The translations under genes were made by a program, and so were the position numbers. This document shows, piece by piece, positions 647 through 53,089 of a stretch of 64,000 nucleotides of DNA; within the stretch, counting starts at the first letter, position 1; each line of letters begins with the position of its first letter. The notes below the pieces were generated by a model, which saw only the letters and a list, made by a program, of their open reading frames with translations, ran no database searches and was not told where the DNA came from. The stretch lies in UHGV virus genome UHGV-0036582; one strand, written 5' to 3'. Source of the DNA: a virus.

Positions 647-654
647 CTGAGAAG

Positions 655-678
655 AGGGCCAGAAACGGCCCTTTCTCT
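655..678 (+). terminator. putative intrinsic terminator after ORF 164-646
   Basis: Stem AGGGCC / GGCCCT with 6-nt loop followed by TTCTCT; T-tract weak. Confidence 0.45.
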
Positions 679-775
679 ATAGCCACCAGCTGCCGCAGGG
701 AAATTTTCAGAAACGGCGAGGAACGTATTCATGAGCCGACGGGGAACGGCCAGGATTTTTTCGGGAAACGGCTGC
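660..775. repeat. four direct copies of GAAACGGC-like 8-mer (iteron-like)
   Basis: AGAAACGGC at 661, AGAAACGGC at 709, GGAACGGC at 743, GAAACGGC at 765 inside a 600-bp non-coding convergent region; read directly from sequence. Confidence 0.5.
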
Positions 776-899
776 ATTCGCCTTTATGTAGAAAAAACAT
801 CGGGAAGCTGGTGGAATCCAACCAGCGGTTGTCGGACAGGTGAGCGGGGAAAATTATGATGACTTTCGTCACCTGAGACATCCAGATTTCTTTCGTAGC

Positions 900-1025
900 A
901 TAATCACATACGTGATTAAGTGGTGTGATTATGTGAAAAATCACGCGCACATAATACGCGAGCGGATACAGAACAAAACAAAATGCCGATCCGCACCGAC
1001 AAATAAACGCGGATCACATAGCAAG
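900..1025. repeat. cluster of GTGATTA/TAATCAC and TCACATA short inverted/direct repeats
   Basis: TAATCAC-ATAC-GTGATTA palindrome at 901-918, GTGATTATGTGAAAAATCAC at 923-942, TCACATA again near 1013; non-coding. Confidence 0.4.
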
Positions 1026-1180
1026 ACTAAAAGCCAATGATTAACCATACTCTATAGCGCAATATAACGCGTTTTAAGCGCGTTAATGTGTTAAGTAATG
1101 GGTATGTACTGGCAAGGATATAAAAGCGCGTCTATGGCGTTATTTTGGTGCTTATTTTTATGTTGTTGGAGTGAGTTAAA

Positions 1181-1212
1181 GACAATAAAAAACGCGCCAT
1201 TGATGGCGCGTT
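1181..1212 (-). terminator. intrinsic terminator of leftward operon
   Basis: 9-bp stem AACGCGCCA / TGGCGCGTT, loop TTGA; on minus strand the hairpin is followed by TTTTTATTGTC. Confidence 0.6.
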
Positions 1213-1232
1213 ATTGTGGAAGTATTGGAAAC

Positions 1233-1268
1233 GAAAAAAGCGCCCATAGTGGGCGCTCGATTTTATTT
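1233..1268. terminator. bidirectional hairpin terminator (copy 1 of repeated 19-nt hairpin)
   Basis: AGCGCCCA-TAG-TGGGCGCT at 1239-1257 flanked by AAAAAA upstream and GATTTTATTT downstream. Confidence 0.55.
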
Positions 1269-1493
1269 ATGTAAACTGATTTCAAATCCCATTTCTACAA
1301 ACGCTTTCAGCATTAAAAATATATCAGCGTCGTTCACCTCAGCTTTTTTGCGCTCCTGGTCGCTCAATAAGTCAATTTTGCGCGTCGTTTCATCTATAAG
1401 CTCGACTGCGCGCCCAGCGTAACCAGCGATCCCAGCGATGCGATTAACATAATATTCATTATGGACGTTAACGCCAGCGATAAGAACAAACAT
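1263..1493 (-). CDS. hypothetical small protein
   Basis: 76-aa ORF at end of leftward operon immediately upstream of terminator hairpins. Confidence 0.4.
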   Translation of the reverse strand: MFVLIAGVNVHNEYYVNRIAGIAGYAGRAVELIDETTRKIDLLSDQERKKAEVNDADIFLMLKAFVEMGFEISLHK

Positions 1494-1513: not shown

Positions 1514-1762
1514 TTAAATAGAATTTTGAAGTTTTCCGATTAATGCGCTTAAACGTAAGTATTCACGTTTGCGCTTGCAATCTCGCTTGCTGTTAAGCAA
1601 ATCAGAAAACGTAAAATTTAATTGGTCGCGTTGCGCGATCAAATCATCAATTAATTCCAGTTTGTAAGCGCGATACTTTGCGCGATATTCCGCGCGGATC
1701 TTGTCATAGCTGACCATCTTTAAAGCTCCTTTAAAGCGCCCATAGTGGGCGCTTGATTCCAT
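1514..1762 (-). CDS. hypothetical small basic protein (start uncertain)
   Basis: 82-aa ORF; N-terminal 15 codons overlap the repeated hairpin 1735-1753 so the real start may be the internal Met near 1717. Confidence 0.35.
   Translation of the reverse strand: MESSAHYGRFKGALKMVSYDKIRAEYRAKYRAYKLELIDDLIAQRDQLNFTFSDLLNSKRDCKRKREYLRLSALIGKLQNSI
1735..1753. repeat. second identical copy of 19-nt hairpin AGCGCCCATAGTGGGCGCT
   Basis: Identical to 1239-1257; sits between two leftward ORFs. Confidence 0.5.
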
Positions 1763-3011: not shown

Positions 3012-3614
3012 TCAAAAAGGCAAAATTCGTTCAACCCAATCGAACAAAACAACTATTTTTCTACCGTTCTCGACACGTAGTGTAACCTGACAAGCATCTG
3101 CGCCTGCTGACACCCCCTCAATTTCACGGCCATCCGCCATGTACACCCTTATAGATTTGTTTGCTTTGTAGGCTTGGTTGCAAATTGCAAAAAAATCGCG
3201 GCGTGATGGCCGATTATCGACATAATCAGGGTGAACTGTTAGTCGACCTTTGAAATCGTGAGCGATACTGTCAACCACACCTGATTCAATTGTACTAATG
3301 CGTTCAAGTGGGAGCCTTATACGATTTTCTTTGTCAAAAGGGGCTGGGCAAAGGTCAACTTTGTTACGAGATGGCATGAGGCCATAAACGTACATGCAAA
3401 ACGCCTGGCCATCTTCGAGAGTGACCCTTACAGGAATTTGTTCTCTGCGCCAGAACATCAGTAGTTTTTCAACGTTAGTGTAATCTCGCGGCCAGAGTTC
3501 AGCTTGGATACCGTAGGTAATATCTTTGGTTGTCATGTCATCACAGAGTTGTTGGCAGAATGTCGATGTCACCAGAATTGCTGGTGAACACCCTGAACGC
3601 TTTTGTGTCTCCAT
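3012..3614 (-). CDS. hypothetical protein (start probably internal Met at 3536)
   Basis: ORF overlaps downstream end of lipoprotein gene; in-frame MTTKD start at 3536 avoids the overlap. Confidence 0.45.
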   Translation of the reverse strand: METQKRSGCSPAILVTSTFCQQLCDDMTTKDITYGIQAELWPRDYTNVEKLLMFWRREQIPVRVTLEDGQAFCMYVYGLMPSRNKVDLCPAPFDKENRIRLPLERISTIESGVVDSIAHDFKGRLTVHPDYVDNRPSRRDFFAICNQAYKANKSIRVYMADGREIEGVSAGADACQVTLRVENGRKIVVLFDWVERILPF

Positions 3615-9152: not shown

Positions 9153-9207
9153 CCTGCTTCTGTATATATAAATAATAAGTAACTTATTAAATATATACGG
9201 AAGCAGG
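9153..9207. repeat. 55-bp near-perfect palindromic element, copy 1
   Basis: CCTGCTTCTGTATATATAAATAATAAGTAACTTATTAAATATATACGGAAGCAGG, nested inside outer arms GGTCTGGG 9131-9138 / CCCAGACC 9222-9229; second copy at 40508-40562. Confidence 0.7.
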
Positions 9208-9324: not shown

Positions 9325-9957
9325 ATGACGGTCGAAAAAGACGAGGTAAAAACTCGCCTGACACCAGCGGAGTGGGCCGAAGCTGAAGCCAAATGGACGT
9401 CAGGCGAATATACACTCTCAAAGCTGGAGGAAGAGTACGGCATTCGTCGTGAAACACTCTCCAGACATTTCAAAAAGCGAGGATTAGAGAAAGGCGCGGA
9501 CTCTGTTGGGAAGATGGTTCGTGAGTCTCTTAAATCTGACGCAGAGCTTCGCGCTAAAGCCCGTGCGGAAAAGATAGAAGAACGTCGTACACGTTATGAC
9601 GGCTGGGCGTATGCGTTGGGGCAGATGGTGATGGTCGAAGTCACTACGGCCAAACGTGAGGGTAAGCCTTTAGGGGCGATTGAGGATTCTCTCAAGAGCT
9701 TACAGAGAGCCAGTAATACCCTTGCAAAATGCTTTGAAGTTTCGTCCAAAGCATTGGGCATGGATCATGCGGAAAATGACGAGGAAGAAATTCCGAACCT
9801 GGTATTTGGTGAGCTTACGCCTTCCCAGGTGGCGAAATTACGTCAGGAAGACGACGAGCCTGAAATCATCGATGACGAATTGCTTGAGACGTTGGAAGAA
9901 GAAGCTCTAAGCGAATTTGATGCGACAGATGATGGAAGTGAAGGGGAGGACGAATAA
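9325..9957 (+). CDS. terS: terminase small subunit
   Basis: Directly upstream of terL with stop/start overlap; N-terminal HTH-like segment and acidic C-terminus. Confidence 0.55.
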   Translation: MTVEKDEVKTRLTPAEWAEAEAKWTSGEYTLSKLEEEYGIRRETLSRHFKKRGLEKGADSVGKMVRESLKSDAELRAKARAEKIEERRTRYDGWAYALGQMVMVEVTTAKREGKPLGAIEDSLKSLQRASNTLAKCFEVSSKALGMDHAENDEEEIPNLVFGELTPSQVAKLRQEDDEPEIIDDELLETLEEEALSEFDATDDGSEGEDE

Positions 9958-11213
9958 TGGCAATCCCGTCCTCGCTCAGTCTTGTGCAACTGCATTCTGG
10001 ACAGATGAAAGTCTTCCAGTCTCCGCATCGATTTAAAGTTGTTTGTGCTGGTCGACGCTGGGGAAAATCCCGGTTGTCGATCTCCACTATTATTCGTGCG
10101 GCGGCAAAGGAAAAAAAGCAAAGGGTCTGGTATGTCGCTCCTACTTACCAGATGGCTCGCCAGATTTTGTGGGACGATCTACAGGAAGTTCTGCCTCGTA
10201 AGTGGGTTAGGAAAAAGAACGACACCACGATGACAATCGTGTTGAAGAACGGTTCGGAGATCGCCCTCAAAGGTGCTGATAAGCCTGACACTCTGCGCGG
10301 CGTAGCGTTGCATTTTGTAGTGCTTGATGAATTTCAGGATATGAAGGCTGACACCTGGTACAAGGTGTTACGACCTACTCTTTCATCGACACGCGGCGGT
10401 GCACTGATCATTGGTACGCCAAAAGGTTTCTCGGAATTTCACAAACTGTGGACTATAGGCCAGAACGTAGAGCTGCAAAGAAAGGGACAGTGGAAGAGCT
10501 GGCAGTTTGTAACTGCCGATTCTCCGTTTGTGCCTACGGCGGAAATTGAAGCTGCTAAGAACGATATGGACCCGAAATCGTTCGCTCAGGAGTACCTGGC
10601 GAGCTTTGAGAACATGTCCGGGCGCGTTTACTACCCGTTCGATCGTAACGTGCATGTAAAACCGCTTCAGTTCAACCCTCGGTTGCCTATATGGGTAGGG
10701 CAGGACTTCAACATTGACCCGATGTCTTCAGTAATTTTGCAACCTCAGCCAAATGGTGAGCTATGGGCAATTGATGAATTGGTGCTCTTTTCCTCTAACA
10801 CGGCAGAGGTTTGTGATGAGCTTGAGAGACGCTTCTGGCGCTGGAAATCACAGATAACGGTATTTCCAGATCCGGCAGGTGCTTATCGCCAACATGCTCG
10901 CGGGGAGTCTGACGTCGACATATTCAAAGAGAAGGGATTCTTACGTGTCGATTATTCGAAAAAGCACCCGCCAATTGCGGATCGTGTTAATGCTGTTAAC
11001 CGAATGCTGATGACCGCATCTGGAGATATCCGGTTGTATATCGATCCGAAGTGCAAGCATTTGATTGATTCACTGGAAAAAGTCATCTACAAGCCTGGAA
11101 CACGAGATATGGATAAGACAGGTGGCATTGAGCATAGTGCAGACGCATTGGGCTATCCAGTACATCGTAGGTATCCAGTCAAAAACCGTGTTATTCTTGG
11201 TGGTTCTCGATAG
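9957..11213 (+). CDS. terL: terminase large subunit
   Basis: Walker A VVCAGRRWGKS, Walker B VVLDEFQD, C-terminal nuclease-like region; followed by portal gene. Confidence 0.85.
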   Translation: MAIPSSLSLVQLHSGQMKVFQSPHRFKVVCAGRRWGKSRLSISTIIRAAAKEKKQRVWYVAPTYQMARQILWDDLQEVLPRKWVRKKNDTTMTIVLKNGSEIALKGADKPDTLRGVALHFVVLDEFQDMKADTWYKVLRPTLSSTRGGALIIGTPKGFSEFHKLWTIGQNVELQRKGQWKSWQFVTADSPFVPTAEIEAAKNDMDPKSFAQEYLASFENMSGRVYYPFDRNVHVKPLQFNPRLPIWVGQDFNIDPMSSVILQPQPNGELWAIDELVLFSSNTAEVCDELERRFWRWKSQITVFPDPAGAYRQHARGESDVDIFKEKGFLRVDYSKKHPPIADRVNAVNRMLMTASGDIRLYIDPKCKHLIDSLEKVIYKPGTRDMDKTGGIEHSADALGYPVHRRYPVKNRVILGGSR

Positions 11214-11239
11214 GTAAGTAATTATCTAAGGTTATTCAA

Positions 11240-38548: not shown

Positions 38549-39217
38549 ATGACCAAGATCTTTGTGGTTGGCGGCACAAAGGGCGGGCCTGGCAAATCCA
38601 CCGTTGCCCAGCAAATTGCCGTTTGCCTGAAAGTCAAAAAGAAGAAGAAGGTTTATATCACTGATATAGATATTCAGCGCACGACAACAAGCTGGTGTGA
38701 AGACCGTCGACAGAACGAAGACCTTGAGCTGATTCCTTTTGCATACGTTCAGGATGACATCATTAAGCACCTAAAATCGCTTCAGGGTAGAGCTGAGTTT
38801 GTAGTGGTAGATGCTGGTGGCTTTGACTCCGAAATTCAGCGACAAGCGATGCTGATGGCCGACGTTATCATTATCCCGCTGCGTCCTAAGCGTCGTGATT
38901 TGAAATCTTTACGTGACATCGATCCTATTATCGACAATGTTCGTAATGTAAACGATAAAGTGAAGGTCCGCGCGGTCATGAACCAGTGCCCGGCTTTGCC
39001 ATCACAAGTGTCTCGCATTTTGGCGGCTAAAGAGATTGTCGAGACGTTTGGCATCGAGTCTGCGCCAGTCAATTTATATAACCGCAACGTCTATGATGAT
39101 GCGGAAGAGTCTGGTCGTTCTATCTTTGAAATGACCGGTAGCGAGCGCGACAAAAAGGCGGAAGCCGAGTTTGAAGAATTTGTAGATTATCTGTTGAGTC
39201 TGGAGGAAGAAGAATAA
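38549..39217 (+). CDS. parA: ParA-family partition ATPase
   Basis: Deviant Walker A GGTKGGPGKST, Walker B VVVDAGG; 222 aa (small type Ib ParA size). Confidence 0.8.
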   Translation: MTKIFVVGGTKGGPGKSTVAQQIAVCLKVKKKKKVYITDIDIQRTTTSWCEDRRQNEDLELIPFAYVQDDIIKHLKSLQGRAEFVVVDAGGFDSEIQRQAMLMADVIIIPLRPKRRDLKSLRDIDPIIDNVRNVNDKVKVRAVMNQCPALPSQVSRILAAKEIVETFGIESAPVNLYNRNVYDDAEESGRSIFEMTGSERDKKAEAEFEEFVDYLLSLEEEE

Positions 39218-39576
39218 TGTCCATGAAAATGGGTGACCTAGCAAAGCGCAAAGAGTCTGATGCACCGGCTAAGAACACAACTCCTTTGCGCCAACCAGTC
39301 AGACCACAGGGACGCCCGACTCGTGGCAAAGAGAAAATTAAAAGCCGCACAATGTCACTGGAGGACGAATACTTCGAACTGCTGGAGATGATGAAGTTCA
39401 TCCCTCGCTTCGAGAAGTTCACTCGTTCTGACGTGATTCGAGCAGCCATTTTCCATCTGGCAGAGAAGTCACCGCAGGAAATCGAGGACATCGTGAAATT
39501 GAATGAGGCGATCACCGCTGCCGATGTCACGATGCGTACCGATGAAATCAAACGAGAGTTGATGAAGAAAGGTTAA
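39217..39576 (+). CDS. small partition DNA-binding partner (ParG/ribbon-helix-helix-like)
   Basis: 119 aa, basic N-terminal tail, translationally coupled to parA (stop/start overlap). Confidence 0.45.
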   Translation: MSMKMGDLAKRKESDAPAKNTTPLRQPVRPQGRPTRGKEKIKSRTMSLEDEYFELLEMMKFIPRFEKFTRSDVIRAAIFHLAEKSPQEIEDIVKLNEAITAADVTMRTDEIKRELMKKG

Positions 39577-40507: not shown

Positions 40508-40562
40508 CCTGCTTCTGTATATATTTAATAAGTTACTTATTATTTATATATACAGAAGCAGG
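40508..40562. repeat. 55-bp near-perfect palindromic element, copy 2 (inverted relative to copy 1)
   Basis: Reverse complement matches 9153-9207 at 54 of 55 positions. Confidence 0.7.
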
Positions 40563-49342: not shown

Positions 49343-49417
49343 GATGGTGTAGCTCAGCGGTAGAGCAGTTGGCTGTTAACCAACTGGTCGGTGGTTCGAA
49401 TCCACCCACCATCGCCA
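49343..49417 (+). tRNA. tRNA-Asn (anticodon GTT)
   Basis: Cloverleaf folded by hand: acceptor GATGGTG/CACCATC, D-stem GCTC/GAGC, anticodon stem GTTGG/CCAAC with loop CTGTTAA, T-arm GGTGG-TTCGAAT-CCACC, 3' GCCA. Confidence 0.85.
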
Positions 49418-49422
49418 ATTTA

Positions 49423-49509
49423 GGGGAGTTAGTCCGTAGGGGCAGCGGGGTAGACTGTAAATCTACTGTCATTGCGACTCGGGTGGTTCGACTCCATCAC
49501 TCCCCACCA
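49423..49509 (+). tRNA. tRNA-Tyr (anticodon GTA), long variable arm
   Basis: Acceptor GGGGAGT/ACTCCCC, anticodon stem GTAGA/TCTAC with loop CTGTAAA, long variable arm, T-arm GGTGG-TTCGACT-CCATC, 3' ACCA; D-arm pairing irregular. Confidence 0.6.
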
Positions 49510-49513
49510 AATT

Positions 49514-49589
49514 GCCGGTTTAGCTCAGTTGGTAGAGCGCCTGCCTTGTAAGCAGGATGTCAGCGGTTCGAGTCCGCTAACCGGCACCA
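49514..49589 (+). tRNA. tRNA-Thr (anticodon TGT)
   Basis: Acceptor GCCGGTT/AACCGGC, D-stem GCTC/GAGC, anticodon stem CCTGC/GCAGG with loop CTTGTAA, T-arm AGCGG-TTCGAGT-CCGCT, 3' ACCA. Confidence 0.85.
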
Positions 49590-49980: not shown

Positions 49981-50054
49981 ATAGACAATTACGGCAGACG
50001 TTCTTAACCATAGCTTGCTAACATCCTAGCAACACTTTTTTCAGCGCAAAATTC

Positions 50055-50078
50055 AAAGGGGCTTCGGCCCCTTTTTTG
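50055..50078. terminator. bidirectional intrinsic terminator
   Basis: AAA-GGGGC-TTCG-GCCCC-TTTTTT; ends both the tRNA transcript and the convergent minus-strand gene. Confidence 0.85.
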
Positions 50079-50092
50079 TTGAACAGTGCAAT

Positions 50093-51355
50093 TTACTTTG
50101 CATAGTCGCCCAATTTTAATATTTCGCGCTTATATTCATTAACCATGCTACTGGATTCAGTATAAATTCGATTTAAAAGATTATCGTTATCTTTATTTTC
50201 ATTTATCTTAATTAGTGCTAATTTATATTCATAGTCATCAAATGCCACAATTAAATGGTGGCCTGGGATTATATCTTCGTCACTCTTAAAGTATATATCT
50301 TCAAGTATGTAATCTAGTTGATTAGATTTTCTTTTCTCGATGTAATCTTCAGCCATAGCTATTACATCATTCCTGTCATTTAACCTGTTTTTTTCGGAAG
50401 GCACATCTTCGTAATGTTGCACGATTGAACAACCAATAAGGCGTGGGATGTAAACGTCAAAATGAGTAACTCTATCATTCGCGGTTTTAAGTAGTTCCTC
50501 AAAGTAGTTTCTTACATGTAAAGGCAACTTCTCAAAGTAATCATTAATTATAGGAGAACAAGGAGTTTTATAATTCATAAGAACCGACGGTACGAGCTTT
50601 GGGTGTCGAAACATCCAGTCCCTTTTAACGTCCGATGGAACATAATAACTTTTAATGATATTATCAAAATAATTTATCATTCGAGATTTGAATATTTTGT
50701 TGAATCTAAGGTTTATGAATGTATCCAGATAAGGCATATTTGAATAAGCATCATCAAAAAATATTTCATCATTGAAAAAATCATATTTATTCAATAAACA
50801 ACACAGTTTTTCCGAATTAATATGTTCACAATAATCGATTTTTAATCCAAAGATAGCAATGATCAACTTCATCTGAGGTGGGATTTTAAAAATTAATTGT
50901 GACACATACGCTCTTTTTTCCTTGAGACATTCCCCATCAATATAAAATGAACCATCCACATACTCAAATATATTAATAATATGCTTCACATACTGTATTA
51001 CCTCATGCTGTCTTACCAATGGATAATATAGTCTATGTAACTCATCGCTGTTTAAATTAATTTTGTGTTTATCGATAATTTGTTTTGCAAGAAGACATAA
51101 CTCATCATGTTGATTTAATAAGGAATCAAACCATTGTTTAAATGCACTCTTTCGCATTTCGAACAATGATTCAGTTGTTAATTGAAGGGCTGAAAAAGCT
51201 GCTTTTGCACTTTTTCTCGCTTCGTAGGCATTCCATGCTGTTGCTATAAAAGCAAATGCTGTAGCCAATGTTCCAACAGTTTGACCATTTAAAACAACCC
51301 AATCCCAAAAAATGACGGTGAGCAGTAGTATAATAATGAAAATTAAAAAAGGCAT
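50093..51355 (-). CDS. AT-rich moron: membrane-anchored protein of unknown function (candidate exclusion/abortive-infection factor)
   Basis: 420 aa; N-terminal hydrophobic segments (FLIFIIILLLTVIFWDWVV, VGTLATAFAFIATAW); hand-counted GC about 20-28 percent in sampled lines versus about 50 percent in structural genes; opposite strand to flanking genes. Confidence 0.6.
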   Translation of the reverse strand: MPFLIFIIILLLTVIFWDWVVLNGQTVGTLATAFAFIATAWNAYEARKSAKAAFSALQLTTESLFEMRKSAFKQWFDSLLNQHDELCLLAKQIIDKHKINLNSDELHRLYYPLVRQHEVIQYVKHIINIFEYVDGSFYIDGECLKEKRAYVSQLIFKIPPQMKLIIAIFGLKIDYCEHINSEKLCCLLNKYDFFNDEIFFDDAYSNMPYLDTFINLRFNKIFKSRMINYFDNIIKSYYVPSDVKRDWMFRHPKLVPSVLMNYKTPCSPIINDYFEKLPLHVRNYFEELLKTANDRVTHFDVYIPRLIGCSIVQHYEDVPSEKNRLNDRNDVIAMAEDYIEKRKSNQLDYILEDIYFKSDEDIIPGHHLIVAFDDYEYKLALIKINENKDNDNLLNRIYTESSSMVNEYKREILKLGDYAK

Positions 51356-51529
51356 GTATGTATTTCACTCTACTAACTATAAAATATTAGGCTAATGTTA
51401 ACCAAACAATGCCTTAATTAATAGATTGATCGAGGCTTTAATAGCTTTATAATGCAGACTGTAAAGATAAGTATGCACATACCTATCTTCTTTGTAAGTA
51501 AAGTTGCATATCAATTCTATGAGGTAACA

Positions 51530-51775
51530 ATGACGATCACTATCTACGGACGAGATAACTGCTCATACTGCAAACGTGCGGTCGAGCTGGCGAAGCAACT
51601 AAAGGGACATGGCTACGGTGATTATGAGTACATCGACATCACCACTGCCGGTATCGACAAGGAAAAACTAAGTGAAATTGTTGGTAAACCGGTAGAGACT
51701 ATCCCCCAAGTGCTGATCGATGGCCAACCGATTGGCGGATACACAGAACTGGCTGCATACGTCAGCACCCTCTGA
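51530..51775 (+). CDS. glutaredoxin (NrdC-like)
   Basis: ITIYGRDNCSYCKRA CxxC active site; C-terminal PQVLIDGQPIGGY; ATG 51530 after GAGGTAA RBS. Confidence 0.75.
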   Translation: MTITIYGRDNCSYCKRAVELAKQLKGHGYGDYEYIDITTAGIDKEKLSEIVGKPVETIPQVLIDGQPIGGYTELAAYVSTL

Positions 51776-51780
51776 TTTTA

Positions 51781-51805
51781 ACGGCTCACAGGAGCCGTTT
51801 TTATT
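51781..51805 (+). terminator. intrinsic terminator after glutaredoxin gene
   Basis: ACGGCTC-ACAG-GAGCCGT followed by TTTTATT. Confidence 0.8.
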
Positions 51806-51854
51806 CCCACCAAACTCACTCCCGTTTCCCTTAAAATTCAAAAAACAACGTCAA

Positions 51855-51887
51855 AATGATTCCATACCTACTATGTATGGAATCATT
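51855..51887. promoter_or_regulatory. 12-bp perfect inverted repeat upstream of recombinase gene
   Basis: AATGATTCCATA-cctactatg-TATGGAATCATT; left arm is the third copy of the AAATGATTCCATAC repeat. Confidence 0.5.
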
Positions 51888-51985
51888 GCTGAAAATGAGT
51901 TACTTTTACTCTTGATCCTATAAGAATCTATGCCTAATATACTGTTTACTTATACAGTGCATCGGCGTAACTCGGTGATTGTCAT

Positions 51986-53089
51986 ATGAAAAATAGCTTT
52001 GACAGAGCACGCGCTGCGGAGAACACCTCAAAAGAGGCGATAGAGTATCTCGAAAGAGCATCTCAAATGCAGGCCGTTATGATCTCCCAGGTCAGCAATG
52101 ACATGAGATTCTCGGACGCATTCATGTTATTCACTCGCTTATCTCTGCTGATAACCAGACGTCGGCCAGAGATCGCTGTTCATTGTATTTTGATACATGT
52201 TTTGCCGCACCTTGCCGATGTAAAAGTAAGTGACATTAATAGGTTCATGGTGAACCAACTGGTCAACCCACTAATACTGGATGGCAAAATTGTTATGGGC
52301 CGCCGCGTTTTCTCTCTGATGAAGCAGTTCCTTAGCTGGTGCGCCTTCCAGGGGATGATAGACGTGTCACCGTTAAACGATATGTCACTTAACAATGTTG
52401 CCGGTGGCGCAAAGCCCACACCTCGCGAGCGGAAGCTGACCGACGCAGAGGTATGGGTGTTCTGGAATATATGGGACTACTTCAATGTGTGCGCTGGTAC
52501 AAAATGGGCGGCCAGGCTATGTCTTGTATCCGCAAGACGACCTGACGAAGTACTGCGGGCTAAAAAAAGTGAGTTCAACCTCCAGCGTGGGGTTTGGAAT
52601 CAAGGCAAGAGAAACAAATCAGCCCGTGAGCATTCTCTGCCTTTAAGCACATTAATGCGCACATGCATTGAAGAGTTATTCGAATATGGTAAAGGCAGCC
52701 AGTGGCTTGTGCCTTCGAATAAAAAAATCGGGAATGATCTTCCGATGTCTAAAGTGGCAATAGCCCAGGCATTACGCCGTATCCTGGAACGACCAGAACT
52801 GATGGAGCTTGAGCCATTTACACCCCGAGATTTGCGTCGTACTGCGCGTAGTTACTTCCCAGCATTAGGCATAAGCCAGGAGGTATCACGCAAAATCATG
52901 AACCACAGTCTTGAGGGGATAGATCGGGTCTACGACCGGCACGATTATATGGACGAGATGCGAGACGCCTTAGAAAGTTTCTCGACGTACATCGCATCAA
53001 TCGTAGAGCAACCGGATTTAGACGAAATTGACCACAAATTCAAGGGAGATCGTCTATCAACAGAGCTTATTCGTGTAAATTTTTCATAG
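51986..53089 (+). CDS. tyrosine recombinase / phage integrase family
   Basis: C-terminal catalytic block PRDLRRTARS ... MNHS ... VYDRHDY (Arg/His/Tyr positions of the tyrosine recombinase fold); 367 aa. Confidence 0.7.
   Translation: MKNSFDRARAAENTSKEAIEYLERASQMQAVMISQVSNDMRFSDAFMLFTRLSLLITRRRPEIAVHCILIHVLPHLADVKVSDINRFMVNQLVNPLILDGKIVMGRRVFSLMKQFLSWCAFQGMIDVSPLNDMSLNNVAGGAKPTPRERKLTDAEVWVFWNIWDYFNVCAGTKWAARLCLVSARRPDEVLRAKKSEFNLQRGVWNQGKRNKSAREHSLPLSTLMRTCIEELFEYGKGSQWLVPSNKKIGNDLPMSKVAIAQALRRILERPELMELEPFTPRDLRRTARSYFPALGISQEVSRKIMNHSLEGIDRVYDRHDYMDEMRDALESFSTYIASIVEQPDLDEIDHKFKGDRLSTELIRVNFS

Follow-up and report, generated by a model that had tools for sequence, protein, structure and literature searches.

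An iteron-like repeat array in a conserved non-coding junction of SSU5/pHCM2/pMT1-type phage-plasmids

The UHGV virus genome UHGV-0036582 was analysed as a stretch of 64,000 nucleotides (nt), referred to here as the window; positions are those of the window unless another record is named. The source of the window is a phage-plasmid of the SSU5/pHCM2/pMT1 type. A gene-free gap of 616 base pairs (bp) (647-1262) is bordered by the stop codon of a rightward gene encoding a 160-amino acid (aa) protein (164-646, + strand) and that of a leftward gene encoding a 76-aa protein (1263-1493, - strand). This gap contains an array of direct repeats that is real, conserved, helically phased and variable in copy number, and that has a paralogue elsewhere in the same element; judged from its sequence, the array has the appearance of a set of protein-binding iterons. 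We would place it, as a new and uncharacterised member, in the iteron/direct-repeat class of binding sites; the terminators around it are ordinary. We infer that the array acts as DNA, serving as a platform for a putative protein from the conserved core of the phage-plasmid. Our preferred reading, held with low confidence, is that it may be an origin-type iteron set, serving the replisome of the element itself as an auxiliary or lytic origin or as the cis-acting control partner of one.

A conserved and helically phased array

A sequence-only reading of the window had listed four direct repeats at 662-772. All four are present as matches to GRAACGGC (662, 710, 743 and 765, all on the + strand), making up four of the eight matches on both strands of the 64-kb window (4.0 expected). 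Their clustering is non-random: the largest same-strand cluster within 120 bp contains four matches, compared to two at most in 150 first-order Markov simulations. The first copy (GAAACGGC, 662-669), however, is part of the terminator of the 160-aa gene, to which it contributes the loop and 3' stem, and its counterpart in most other lineages is GAAACGCC; the conserved array therefore consists of copies 2-4 (array B; Table 1). The start-to-start spacing of these three units is 33 and 22 bp, with T-tracts between units. As 22 bp corresponds to two helical turns, the proximal units lie on the same face of the DNA.

The units at 710, 743 and 765 are conserved across genera. In a sample of 29 distinct relatives or lineages (used for column conservation, stem conservation and position weight matrix [PWM] scans throughout), conservation is 0.94-0.99 in the cores versus 0.76-0.86 in the spacers. 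The number of units in array B ranges from two (L011) to five (L014) among relatives, and pCPE35 carries an exact extra 22-bp unit (spacing 22, 22). In the Citrobacter lineage L013, both proximal cores have changed together to GGGGAAAGGC.

A second array with the same core, array A, is located approximately 3.6 kb upstream in relatives and therefore falls outside the window. In Escherichia coli plasmid p788309_2 (CP091393, also L016), it spans 39142-39268 with a spacing of 22, 22, 22, 31 and 22 bp; the same spacing is found in L001, L002 and five viral contigs, and several IMG/VR contigs carry array A. There are six units in CP091393 and Cyrano, five in PhiR41_1 (21, 22, 31, 22) and three in Klebsiella-type elements. 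Across 33 nt that take in two adjacent units, arrays A and B share 85% identity, and array B is paralogous to the larger array A. Both arrays begin directly past an intrinsic terminator of a rightward early transcript, and in both a TATRNAG motif follows 10-12 bp past the last core (GGTATAGAG / GGTATAGCG after array A). These repeats are predicted to be protein-binding iterons, whose classical hallmarks include phasing by two turns, a variable number of copies, change in concert and a partner array at a distance.

Conservation and coding potential of the gap

The first 3 kb of the window are 94-98% identical to Escherichia phage CMS-2020a, PhiR41_1 and Cyrano and approximately 80% identical to Klebsiella and Salmonella relatives. 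A 636-bp query across the gap (640-1275) is 100% identical to CP091393, a close and fully annotated relative, although the window as a whole is not identical to this plasmid. The gap sequence is kept, mostly at 65-75% identity, in 783 plasmids from Klebsiella, Escherichia, Enterobacter, Yersinia (pMT1), Salmonella (pHCM2, SSU5) and Citrobacter. All lineages have a gap of approximately 590-650 bp at this place, with a rightward 483-bp gene (160 aa) on one side and the end of the leftward operon on the other.

No open reading frame (ORF) in the gap is conserved in position or frame among the eight lineages compared. Coding potential was rejected because the ORFs present, including a hydrophobic 'MALFW...' ORF and a minus-strand ORF running through the array, change frame, start and length between lineages. 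The gap, which had been described from sequence as a non-coding convergent region at 650-1270, is thus a conserved non-coding junction where a rightward early transcription unit meets the leftward operon. Neither a conserved ORF nor an Rfam family is found, and the array has no consensus RNA structure on either strand, which points to a DNA rather than a coding or RNA element.

Comparison with known replication origins

The preferred reading would work as follows. A putative core-encoded protein would bind the units cooperatively, and arrays A and B may pair or loop. The replisome served would be the element's own (DnaB-like helicase, primase and DNA polymerase III alpha subunit), switched on by early transcription that ends at the array edge, in a manner resembling the lambda ori iterons or the P4 ori/crr pair. 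The element does encode its own helicase, primase and dnaE; given this set, a lytic origin distinct from the RepA origin is to be expected. Lambda-type origins have at least three direct repeats of approximately 19-22 bp placed about two turns apart, and the array has three (710, 743 and 765, with spacings of 33 and 22 bp).

IMG/VR was scanned for GAAACGGC-N13-15-GAAACGGC. Besides chance matches, two classes were recovered: SSU5-like elements and lambdoid phages of approximately 40 kb. The latter contain, midway through a 364-aa 'replication initiation O-like' gene (phrog_9773), four to five units of AATGGAAACGGC-N6-GCCGAAT at 22-bp spacing; the encoded protein has a C-terminal domain with a relationship to lambda O. 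After the units comes CTCTATACAGATC...ACAGATC...ACAGATC, within an AT-rich stretch with GATC. The lambdoid array is a textbook lambda-type origin, from which it appears that an array of this core and spacing is a working origin elsewhere. Klebsiella lambdoid prophages such as ST405-OXA48phi1.2 share with the window the GAAACGGC core, direct repeats (four to five in the prophages) and the 22-bp spacing. Their units have the form GAAACGGC-N6-GCCGAATG, and the partial layout GAAACGGC-N6-GCC is common to the window array; the closest pair of units matches at 14/15 nt (CCGAAGGGAAACGGC versus CCGAATGGAAACGGC). TATRNAG follows the last unit in all three array types (as CTCTATACAGATC in the lambdoid phages), a motif that was outside the search pattern. 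In contrast, the window array is missing most of the 3' half of the lambdoid unit (GCCGAAT). The lambdoid array is embedded in its initiator gene, with three ACAGATC repeats set in AT-rich sequence after it; the window has neither an initiator gene nor such an AT-rich stretch.

An initiator gene need not adjoin its iterons, as seen in the split iteron sets of P4 (ori/crr), P1 (incC/incA) and RK2 (oriV with remote trfA). As in these systems, arrays A and B are two same-orientation clusters of one short direct repeat, a few kb apart, and the RK2 iterons have a period of approximately 22 bp, as here. P4, P1 and RK2 differ in having a proven binding protein and replication function, with DnaA boxes or AT-rich repeats at the origin, whereas the arrays described here are candidates.

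Several observations weigh against an origin function. No O-like initiator was detected in the window or CP091393 by tblastn, hmmsearch or hhalign with the O-like N- and C-terminal domains (hhalign probabilities of at most 2%), and the array is intergenic rather than in or beside a cognate O-like gene. There is no AT-rich unwinding element beside the array: AT content is 40-57% in 760-840 and reaches 72-78% only near the terminators, and past the array, A-rich sequence is limited to a patch of 12 bp (TAGAAAAAACA). A single DnaA box (932-940), which is not conserved, occurs in the gap, along with two GATC sequences (2.8 expected) and no IHF site, and GC skew at the gap changes only as the gene orientation of the leftward operon predicts. 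Homology of the gap to the lambdoid origin was considered and rejected: similarity stops at the core plus approximately 7 nt, and local alignment scores (z = 1-5 versus shuffles) are driven by the core. As core and spacing were the search criterion, the likeness to lambdoid phages is to be read as an analogy, to which the 14/15-nt unit match, the partial layout and TATRNAG add suggestive detail. Finally, an AT-rich 55-bp palindrome upstream of the replication genes (40508-40562) is at least an equal candidate for the lytic origin. Of the proposal, made from sequence, that the repeats are origin iterons, the genuine phased array with the core and spacing of lambdoid origin iterons survives; the accessory features of an origin are absent, and the array is not the RepA origin.

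Possible transcription control or RNA-level function

The main rival, possible though doubtful, is that the array controls transcription, with its units acting as tandem activator or repressor sites for a weak downstream promoter or for neighbouring early units. The product would be a non-coding or antisense RNA directed toward the leftward operon. Direct repeats around the -35 region are bound by the CII proteins of lambda and 186. Such a role is consistent with a conserved TATA-like hexamer that, for both arrays, lies 10-12 bp downstream of the last core (TATGTA at 785-790; TATAGC/TATAGA after array A), with conserved promoter-like sites on both strands of the gap, and with an early region rich in regulatory repeats (the 30-bp triple units and the palindromic operator in five repeated promoters, described below). 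In these hexamers, however, the final T that is critical to a -10 element is missing. What follows array A bears no relation to what follows array B, no ORF or RNA structure is conserved downstream, and there is no rightward gene for array B to control. Up to six units is also more than is usual for activators of this kind, and Yersinia pestis small RNA (sRNA) sequencing lists no sRNA in the pMT1 gap.

It is unlikely that the gap acts at the RNA level through a small RNA. Two forms can be envisaged: an approximately 85-nt minus-strand RNA derived from the 3' untranslated region and containing both terminator hairpins, or a leftward transcript with GCCGUUUCC repeats, to which the FljA/Hfq-like protein, encoded at a distance of 2 kb, might bind. 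The two U-tailed hairpins and their spacer are nearly invariant across genera (0.83-0.97), a conserved minus-strand -10-like site is present at 951-956, the adjacent operon encodes a PF03614 (FljA) protein with a weak Hfq match, and there is weak Rfam similarity to two-hairpin sRNAs (MicX, E = 0.0012, well under the gathering score). Nevertheless, in a search of the whole window against Rfam 15 only three tRNAs reached threshold; the gap had no such match, also at a relaxed E-value, its best hit being MicX at 27 bits versus the 75 required. These weak similarities reflect the tandem terminators only. RNAalifold, run on both strands of three sub-regions and on the nine closest lineages (92% identical, too alike for covariation), recovered the terminators only, with no consensus structure in the array; the stems never vary, which is neutral on structure, and there is no covariation. 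Y. pestis RNA-seq reports two pMT1 sRNAs, both mapping elsewhere on the plasmid. The exact 22-bp phasing and T-tracts suit DNA recognition better. A CsrA-sponge idea, suggested by the many GGA sequences, was dropped, as two conserved cores read CAGAAACGGC and lack GGA.

Less likely readings: repeats without function or initiator-less mimics

More unlikely still is that the gap serves termination only and the repeats are functionless leftovers of a local duplication. The terminators alone would account for the convergent junction, and the copy-number change in pCPE35 shows that slippage occurs. Against this, conservation is higher in the cores than in the spacers across Yersinia, Salmonella, Klebsiella and Escherichia, where overall identity is 65-75%; the element also keeps a paralogous array elsewhere, and the core change in Citrobacter is concerted.

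The core and spacing of the two GGAAACGGC arrays are common to the origin iterons of Klebsiella lambdoid prophages, which occupy the same hosts. This leads to the idea that the arrays might be initiator-less mimics of a lambdoid origin, titrating the O protein of a rival phage or being replicated in trans on prophage induction, which we consider quite improbable. In a milder form, the arrays could be an ori/crr-like lytic origin of SSU5-type phage-plasmids with an initiator of a new family.

The packaging site and paired palindromes

Terminase binding was the other function proposed from the sequence alone. That the gap is a cos or pac site recognised by the small terminase is very hard to sustain, its sole support being the general resemblance of repeat arrays to cosB or pac. 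The genes terS (phrog_867, DNA-binding; 9326-9958) and terL (Terminase_6N; 9958-11214) lie 8 kb downstream, the hairpins in the gap are plain terminators, and a packaging site, being unique, would hardly be expected to have a second array copy at a distance of 3.6 kb. Moreover, the linear, virion-derived SSU5 record starts and ends in a palindrome upstream of terS, at a junction corresponding to 9189|9190; this deposited record is an indirect proxy for the termini, its ends being either true ends or an assembly break at a repeat.

That palindrome is one of two near-identical, AT-rich 55-bp palindromes in the window (9153-9207 and 40508-40562), of sequence CCTGCTTCTGTATATAT ... ATATATAC(G/A)GAAGCAGG. 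The first lies about 120-130 bp upstream of terS. The second occupies a divergent gap upstream of the replication module, which encodes a 249-aa protein of unknown function, the DnaB-like helicase and the primase. The pair might function as cos/pac, as a lytic origin or as an operator common to the lytic operons, and 9153-9207 is a better candidate for the packaging site than the gap whether the SSU5 end is real or an assembly break.

The RepA plasmid origin and partition

Although the gap has iteron-like repeats and no genes, its use by RepA as the plasmid (prophage-state) origin is refuted for practical purposes: repA, encoding a RepB-family initiator, is located at CP091393 1619-2833, at a distance of approximately 40 kb; the iteron that flanks it on both sides, ACCGCTGACAGCATA (15 copies, CP091393 1081-2834), is unrelated to the array and does not occur in the gap; and the cumulative GC skew of the whole plasmid, a check proposed with the sequence-only reading, has both its minimum and its maximum at repA rather than at the gap. 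The array is also conserved across lineages typed to different replicons (rep_cluster_488, IncFIB and rep_cluster_763), which argues that RepA is not its ligand. The repA region of CP091393 is the true plasmid replicon. It has a P1-like layout (incC-repA-incA), with adjoining GATC repeats and DnaA-box-like sequences (TGTGGATATGTGAATAA) upstream (CP091393 1081-2834, 2880-2960). This Rep_3/RepB-type, IncFIB-like origin resembles the array in having direct repeats in gene-free DNA; it differs in its iteron, in its siting around repA and in its GATC sequences and DnaA boxes.

A partition centromere is likewise not supported: a ParA-like gene and its partner are found at 38549-39576, with no GRAACGGC near them.

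Terminators and the recurring hairpin

Three hairpins in the gap (649-677, 1191-1212 and 1239-1257; Table 1) are ordinary Rho-independent terminators, each a GC-rich hairpin with a U tract after a stop codon. The hairpin at 649-677 folds at -19.3 kcal/mol (z = -3.45). Its pairs are mostly kept in the 29 lineages through one-sided changes (GC/GU, AU/GU), and elsewhere the stem reads GGGGC/GCCCC. Conservation falls to about half at inner-stem positions 655/672 and 659/668, which is probably a one-base loop or alignment shift.

The two terminator-like hairpins noted previously both fold, and each is followed by a run of six U. In minus-strand RNA, 1239-1257 has a folding energy of -15.5 kcal/mol and a stem that is invariant in 29/29 lineages; in the lineage of the window it is also terminator-like on the + strand. 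The distal hairpin at 1191-1212 (-16.8 kcal/mol, z = -5.1) has an essentially invariant stem and a variable loop. The earlier observation that one hairpin recurs some 500 bp away in the operon is borne out: AGCGCCCATAGTGGGCGCT at 1239-1257 is found identically at 1735-1753, 496 bp apart, and the similarity spans 34 nt at 88%. This intercistronic copy of the same terminator cassette is followed by UUU only, as would suit an attenuator or stabiliser between cistrons. SSU5-type relatives are without the 76-aa gene and have a single hairpin copy left.

With their GC-rich stems and U runs directly past stop codons on both strands, these hairpins do not differ in kind from other tandem Rho-independent terminators at convergent gene ends. 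What is unusual is the invariance of the stem across genera and the use of one hairpin twice in an operon.

Table 1. Features mapped in and beside the gap (window positions; a dot indicates that no strand was assigned).
Feature	Position	Strand	Sequence	Remarks
Intrinsic terminator of rightward 160-aa gene	649-677	+	GGGCC/GGCCC	Stem lengthened by A-T and G-U pairs, then UUUCUCU
Iteron-like array (array B)	706-772	+	CAGAAACGGC; CGGGGAACGGC; CGGGAAACGGC	Cores at 708-717, 740-750 and 762-772
Conserved block	781-795	.	CCTTTATGTAGAAAA	Conservation 0.95; starts 9 bp past last core; TATGTA hexamer 12 bp downstream
Degenerate further unit	800-818	+	TCGGGAAGCTGGTGGAATC	74% identical to unit 761-779; CGGGA kept in all lineages
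Conserved block	871-897	.	CCTGAGACATCCAGATTTCTTTCGTAG	Conservation 0.86; weak sigma-70-like + strand sites (GAGACA-18-CATAAT) in consensus and PWM scans
Inverted-repeat nest	899-957	.	GTGATT/AATCAC; ATTATGTG/CACATAAT	Half-sites
-10-like hexamer	951-956	-	TATTAT	TATCAT elsewhere; in invariant block ATACGCGAGCG
Conserved block	1095-1110	.	GTAATGGGTATGTACT	Conservation 0.95
Conserved block	1144-1160	.	TTTGGTGCTTATTTTTA	Conservation 0.93; overlapping small ORFs in differing frames by lineage
Second (distal) intrinsic terminator of leftward operon	1191-1212	-	AACGCGCCAUCAAUGGCGCGUU	Followed by UUUUAUUG
First intrinsic terminator of leftward operon	1239-1257	-	AGCGCCCACUAUGGGCGCU	Followed by UUUUUCG; 5 nt past 76-aa gene stop
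Identical hairpin copy	1735-1753	-		12 nt past 216-aa gene stop, right before ribosome-binding site of next cistron; -15.1 kcal/mol

Other repeats in the gap

The cluster of GTGATTA/TAATCAC and TCACATA repeats described at 900-1020 is present, with GTGATTA at 912 and 925, TAATCAC at 901 and TCACATA at 904 and 1014. Four GTGATT/AATCAC half-sites fall within 50 bp, compared to a maximum of three in simulations (reached in 3/150 runs). They form nested inverted repeats (AATCAC-ATAC-GTGATT at 902-917 and CATAATCACA/TGTGATTATG at 899-933) in a nest that looks like an operator. The cluster at 899-957 is elaborated in the E. coli lineage only, with a single TGTGATTATGTGAA in other lineages, and no further copies of its repeats occur elsewhere in the window. 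Inspection of 900-960 gave no convincing match to Xer/dif-like or CRP sites.

The -10-like hexamer at 951-956 occupies the same alignment column in 28/29 lineages (PWM scan), with a long spacer of 19 bp to the best -35. Such a site could drive a leftward transcript antisense to the array and the 160-aa gene. Further along, a 10-11-bp unit, CGCGCTAAAA, is repeated at approximately 1050-1090 (L145 3405-3450), with two copies in pMT1, three in most elements and five in a Buttiauxella plasmid. The related motifs AAAACGCGC / GCGCGTTT occur about seven times, in both orientations, in 1050-1215.

Duplicated modules of the early region

Tandem 30-bp units (ACCNACCTSTT-N8-CAGGCTACCG) are found at 1-85, where they adjoin, on its upstream side, the promoter that serves the 160-aa gene (TTGACG at approximately 91). 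Relatives have three such units, the first of which is cut by the window start. The triple unit recurs approximately 3.6 kb upstream in relatives (L016 38478-38574), some 590 bp before array A. As triple units precede both arrays, the two repeat types make up a duplicated module.

In the same region (88-142; L016 37700-42240), five small rightward genes each have the same 55-nt promoter and leader. This leader contains, right after the -10, a palindrome (AAACAAnnTTGTTT) that looks like a shared operator of an early regulon. L016 38300-39075 is ORF-free for approximately 600 nt and strongly A/C-rich (GC skew -139 per kb, AT skew +165). This stretch, possibly a long non-coding RNA, contains GCCATTACCCAA repeats, and a strong terminator closes it immediately ahead of array A.

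Neighbouring genes and other features of the window

The family of the 160-aa protein is an orphan one that occurs in these elements only. Neither Pfam nor a PDB sequence search gave a match, and PHROG gave only a family of unknown function; on these grounds the protein was rejected as the array-binding protein. A scan of genome contigs for distant relatives of this protein returned six close relatives only. The single-sequence structural model of it is poor, while the alignment-based model is good (predicted local distance difference test [pLDDT] 86.6). PDB sequence searches with the 216-aa, 92-aa and 249-aa proteins gave no matches.

The 'transcriptional regulator' of the leftward operon (3012-3539, - strand) matches the FljA family over its full length (PF03614, E = 1.6e-84) and the Hfq domain weakly. 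In Salmonella, flagellin is repressed by FljA, which binds mRNA.

A row of three tRNA genes occupies 49343-49586 on the + strand (Rfam tRNA; 76.5, 75.5 and 39.7 bits). A low-GC island at 50001-52000 (34% versus approximately 47% around it) with negative GC skew is probably acquired cargo.

Implications for SSU5-type phage-plasmids

Phage-plasmids of the SSU5/pHCM2/pMT1 type are common in clinical Klebsiella, E. coli and Salmonella and in Y. pestis, and some carry resistance genes; CP091393, for example, carries blaCTX-M-15. The literature searched contains no paper on the termini, the lytic origin or these repeats in SSU5-type elements, and no lytic origin assignment for them. The present analysis removes two wrong leads, in that the gap is neither the plasmid origin nor the packaging site, and the paired palindromes are better candidates for packaging and lytic initiation. 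The pair of arrays in the early region is a testable candidate for the switch from RepA to lytic replication, or for the landing pad of a regulator.

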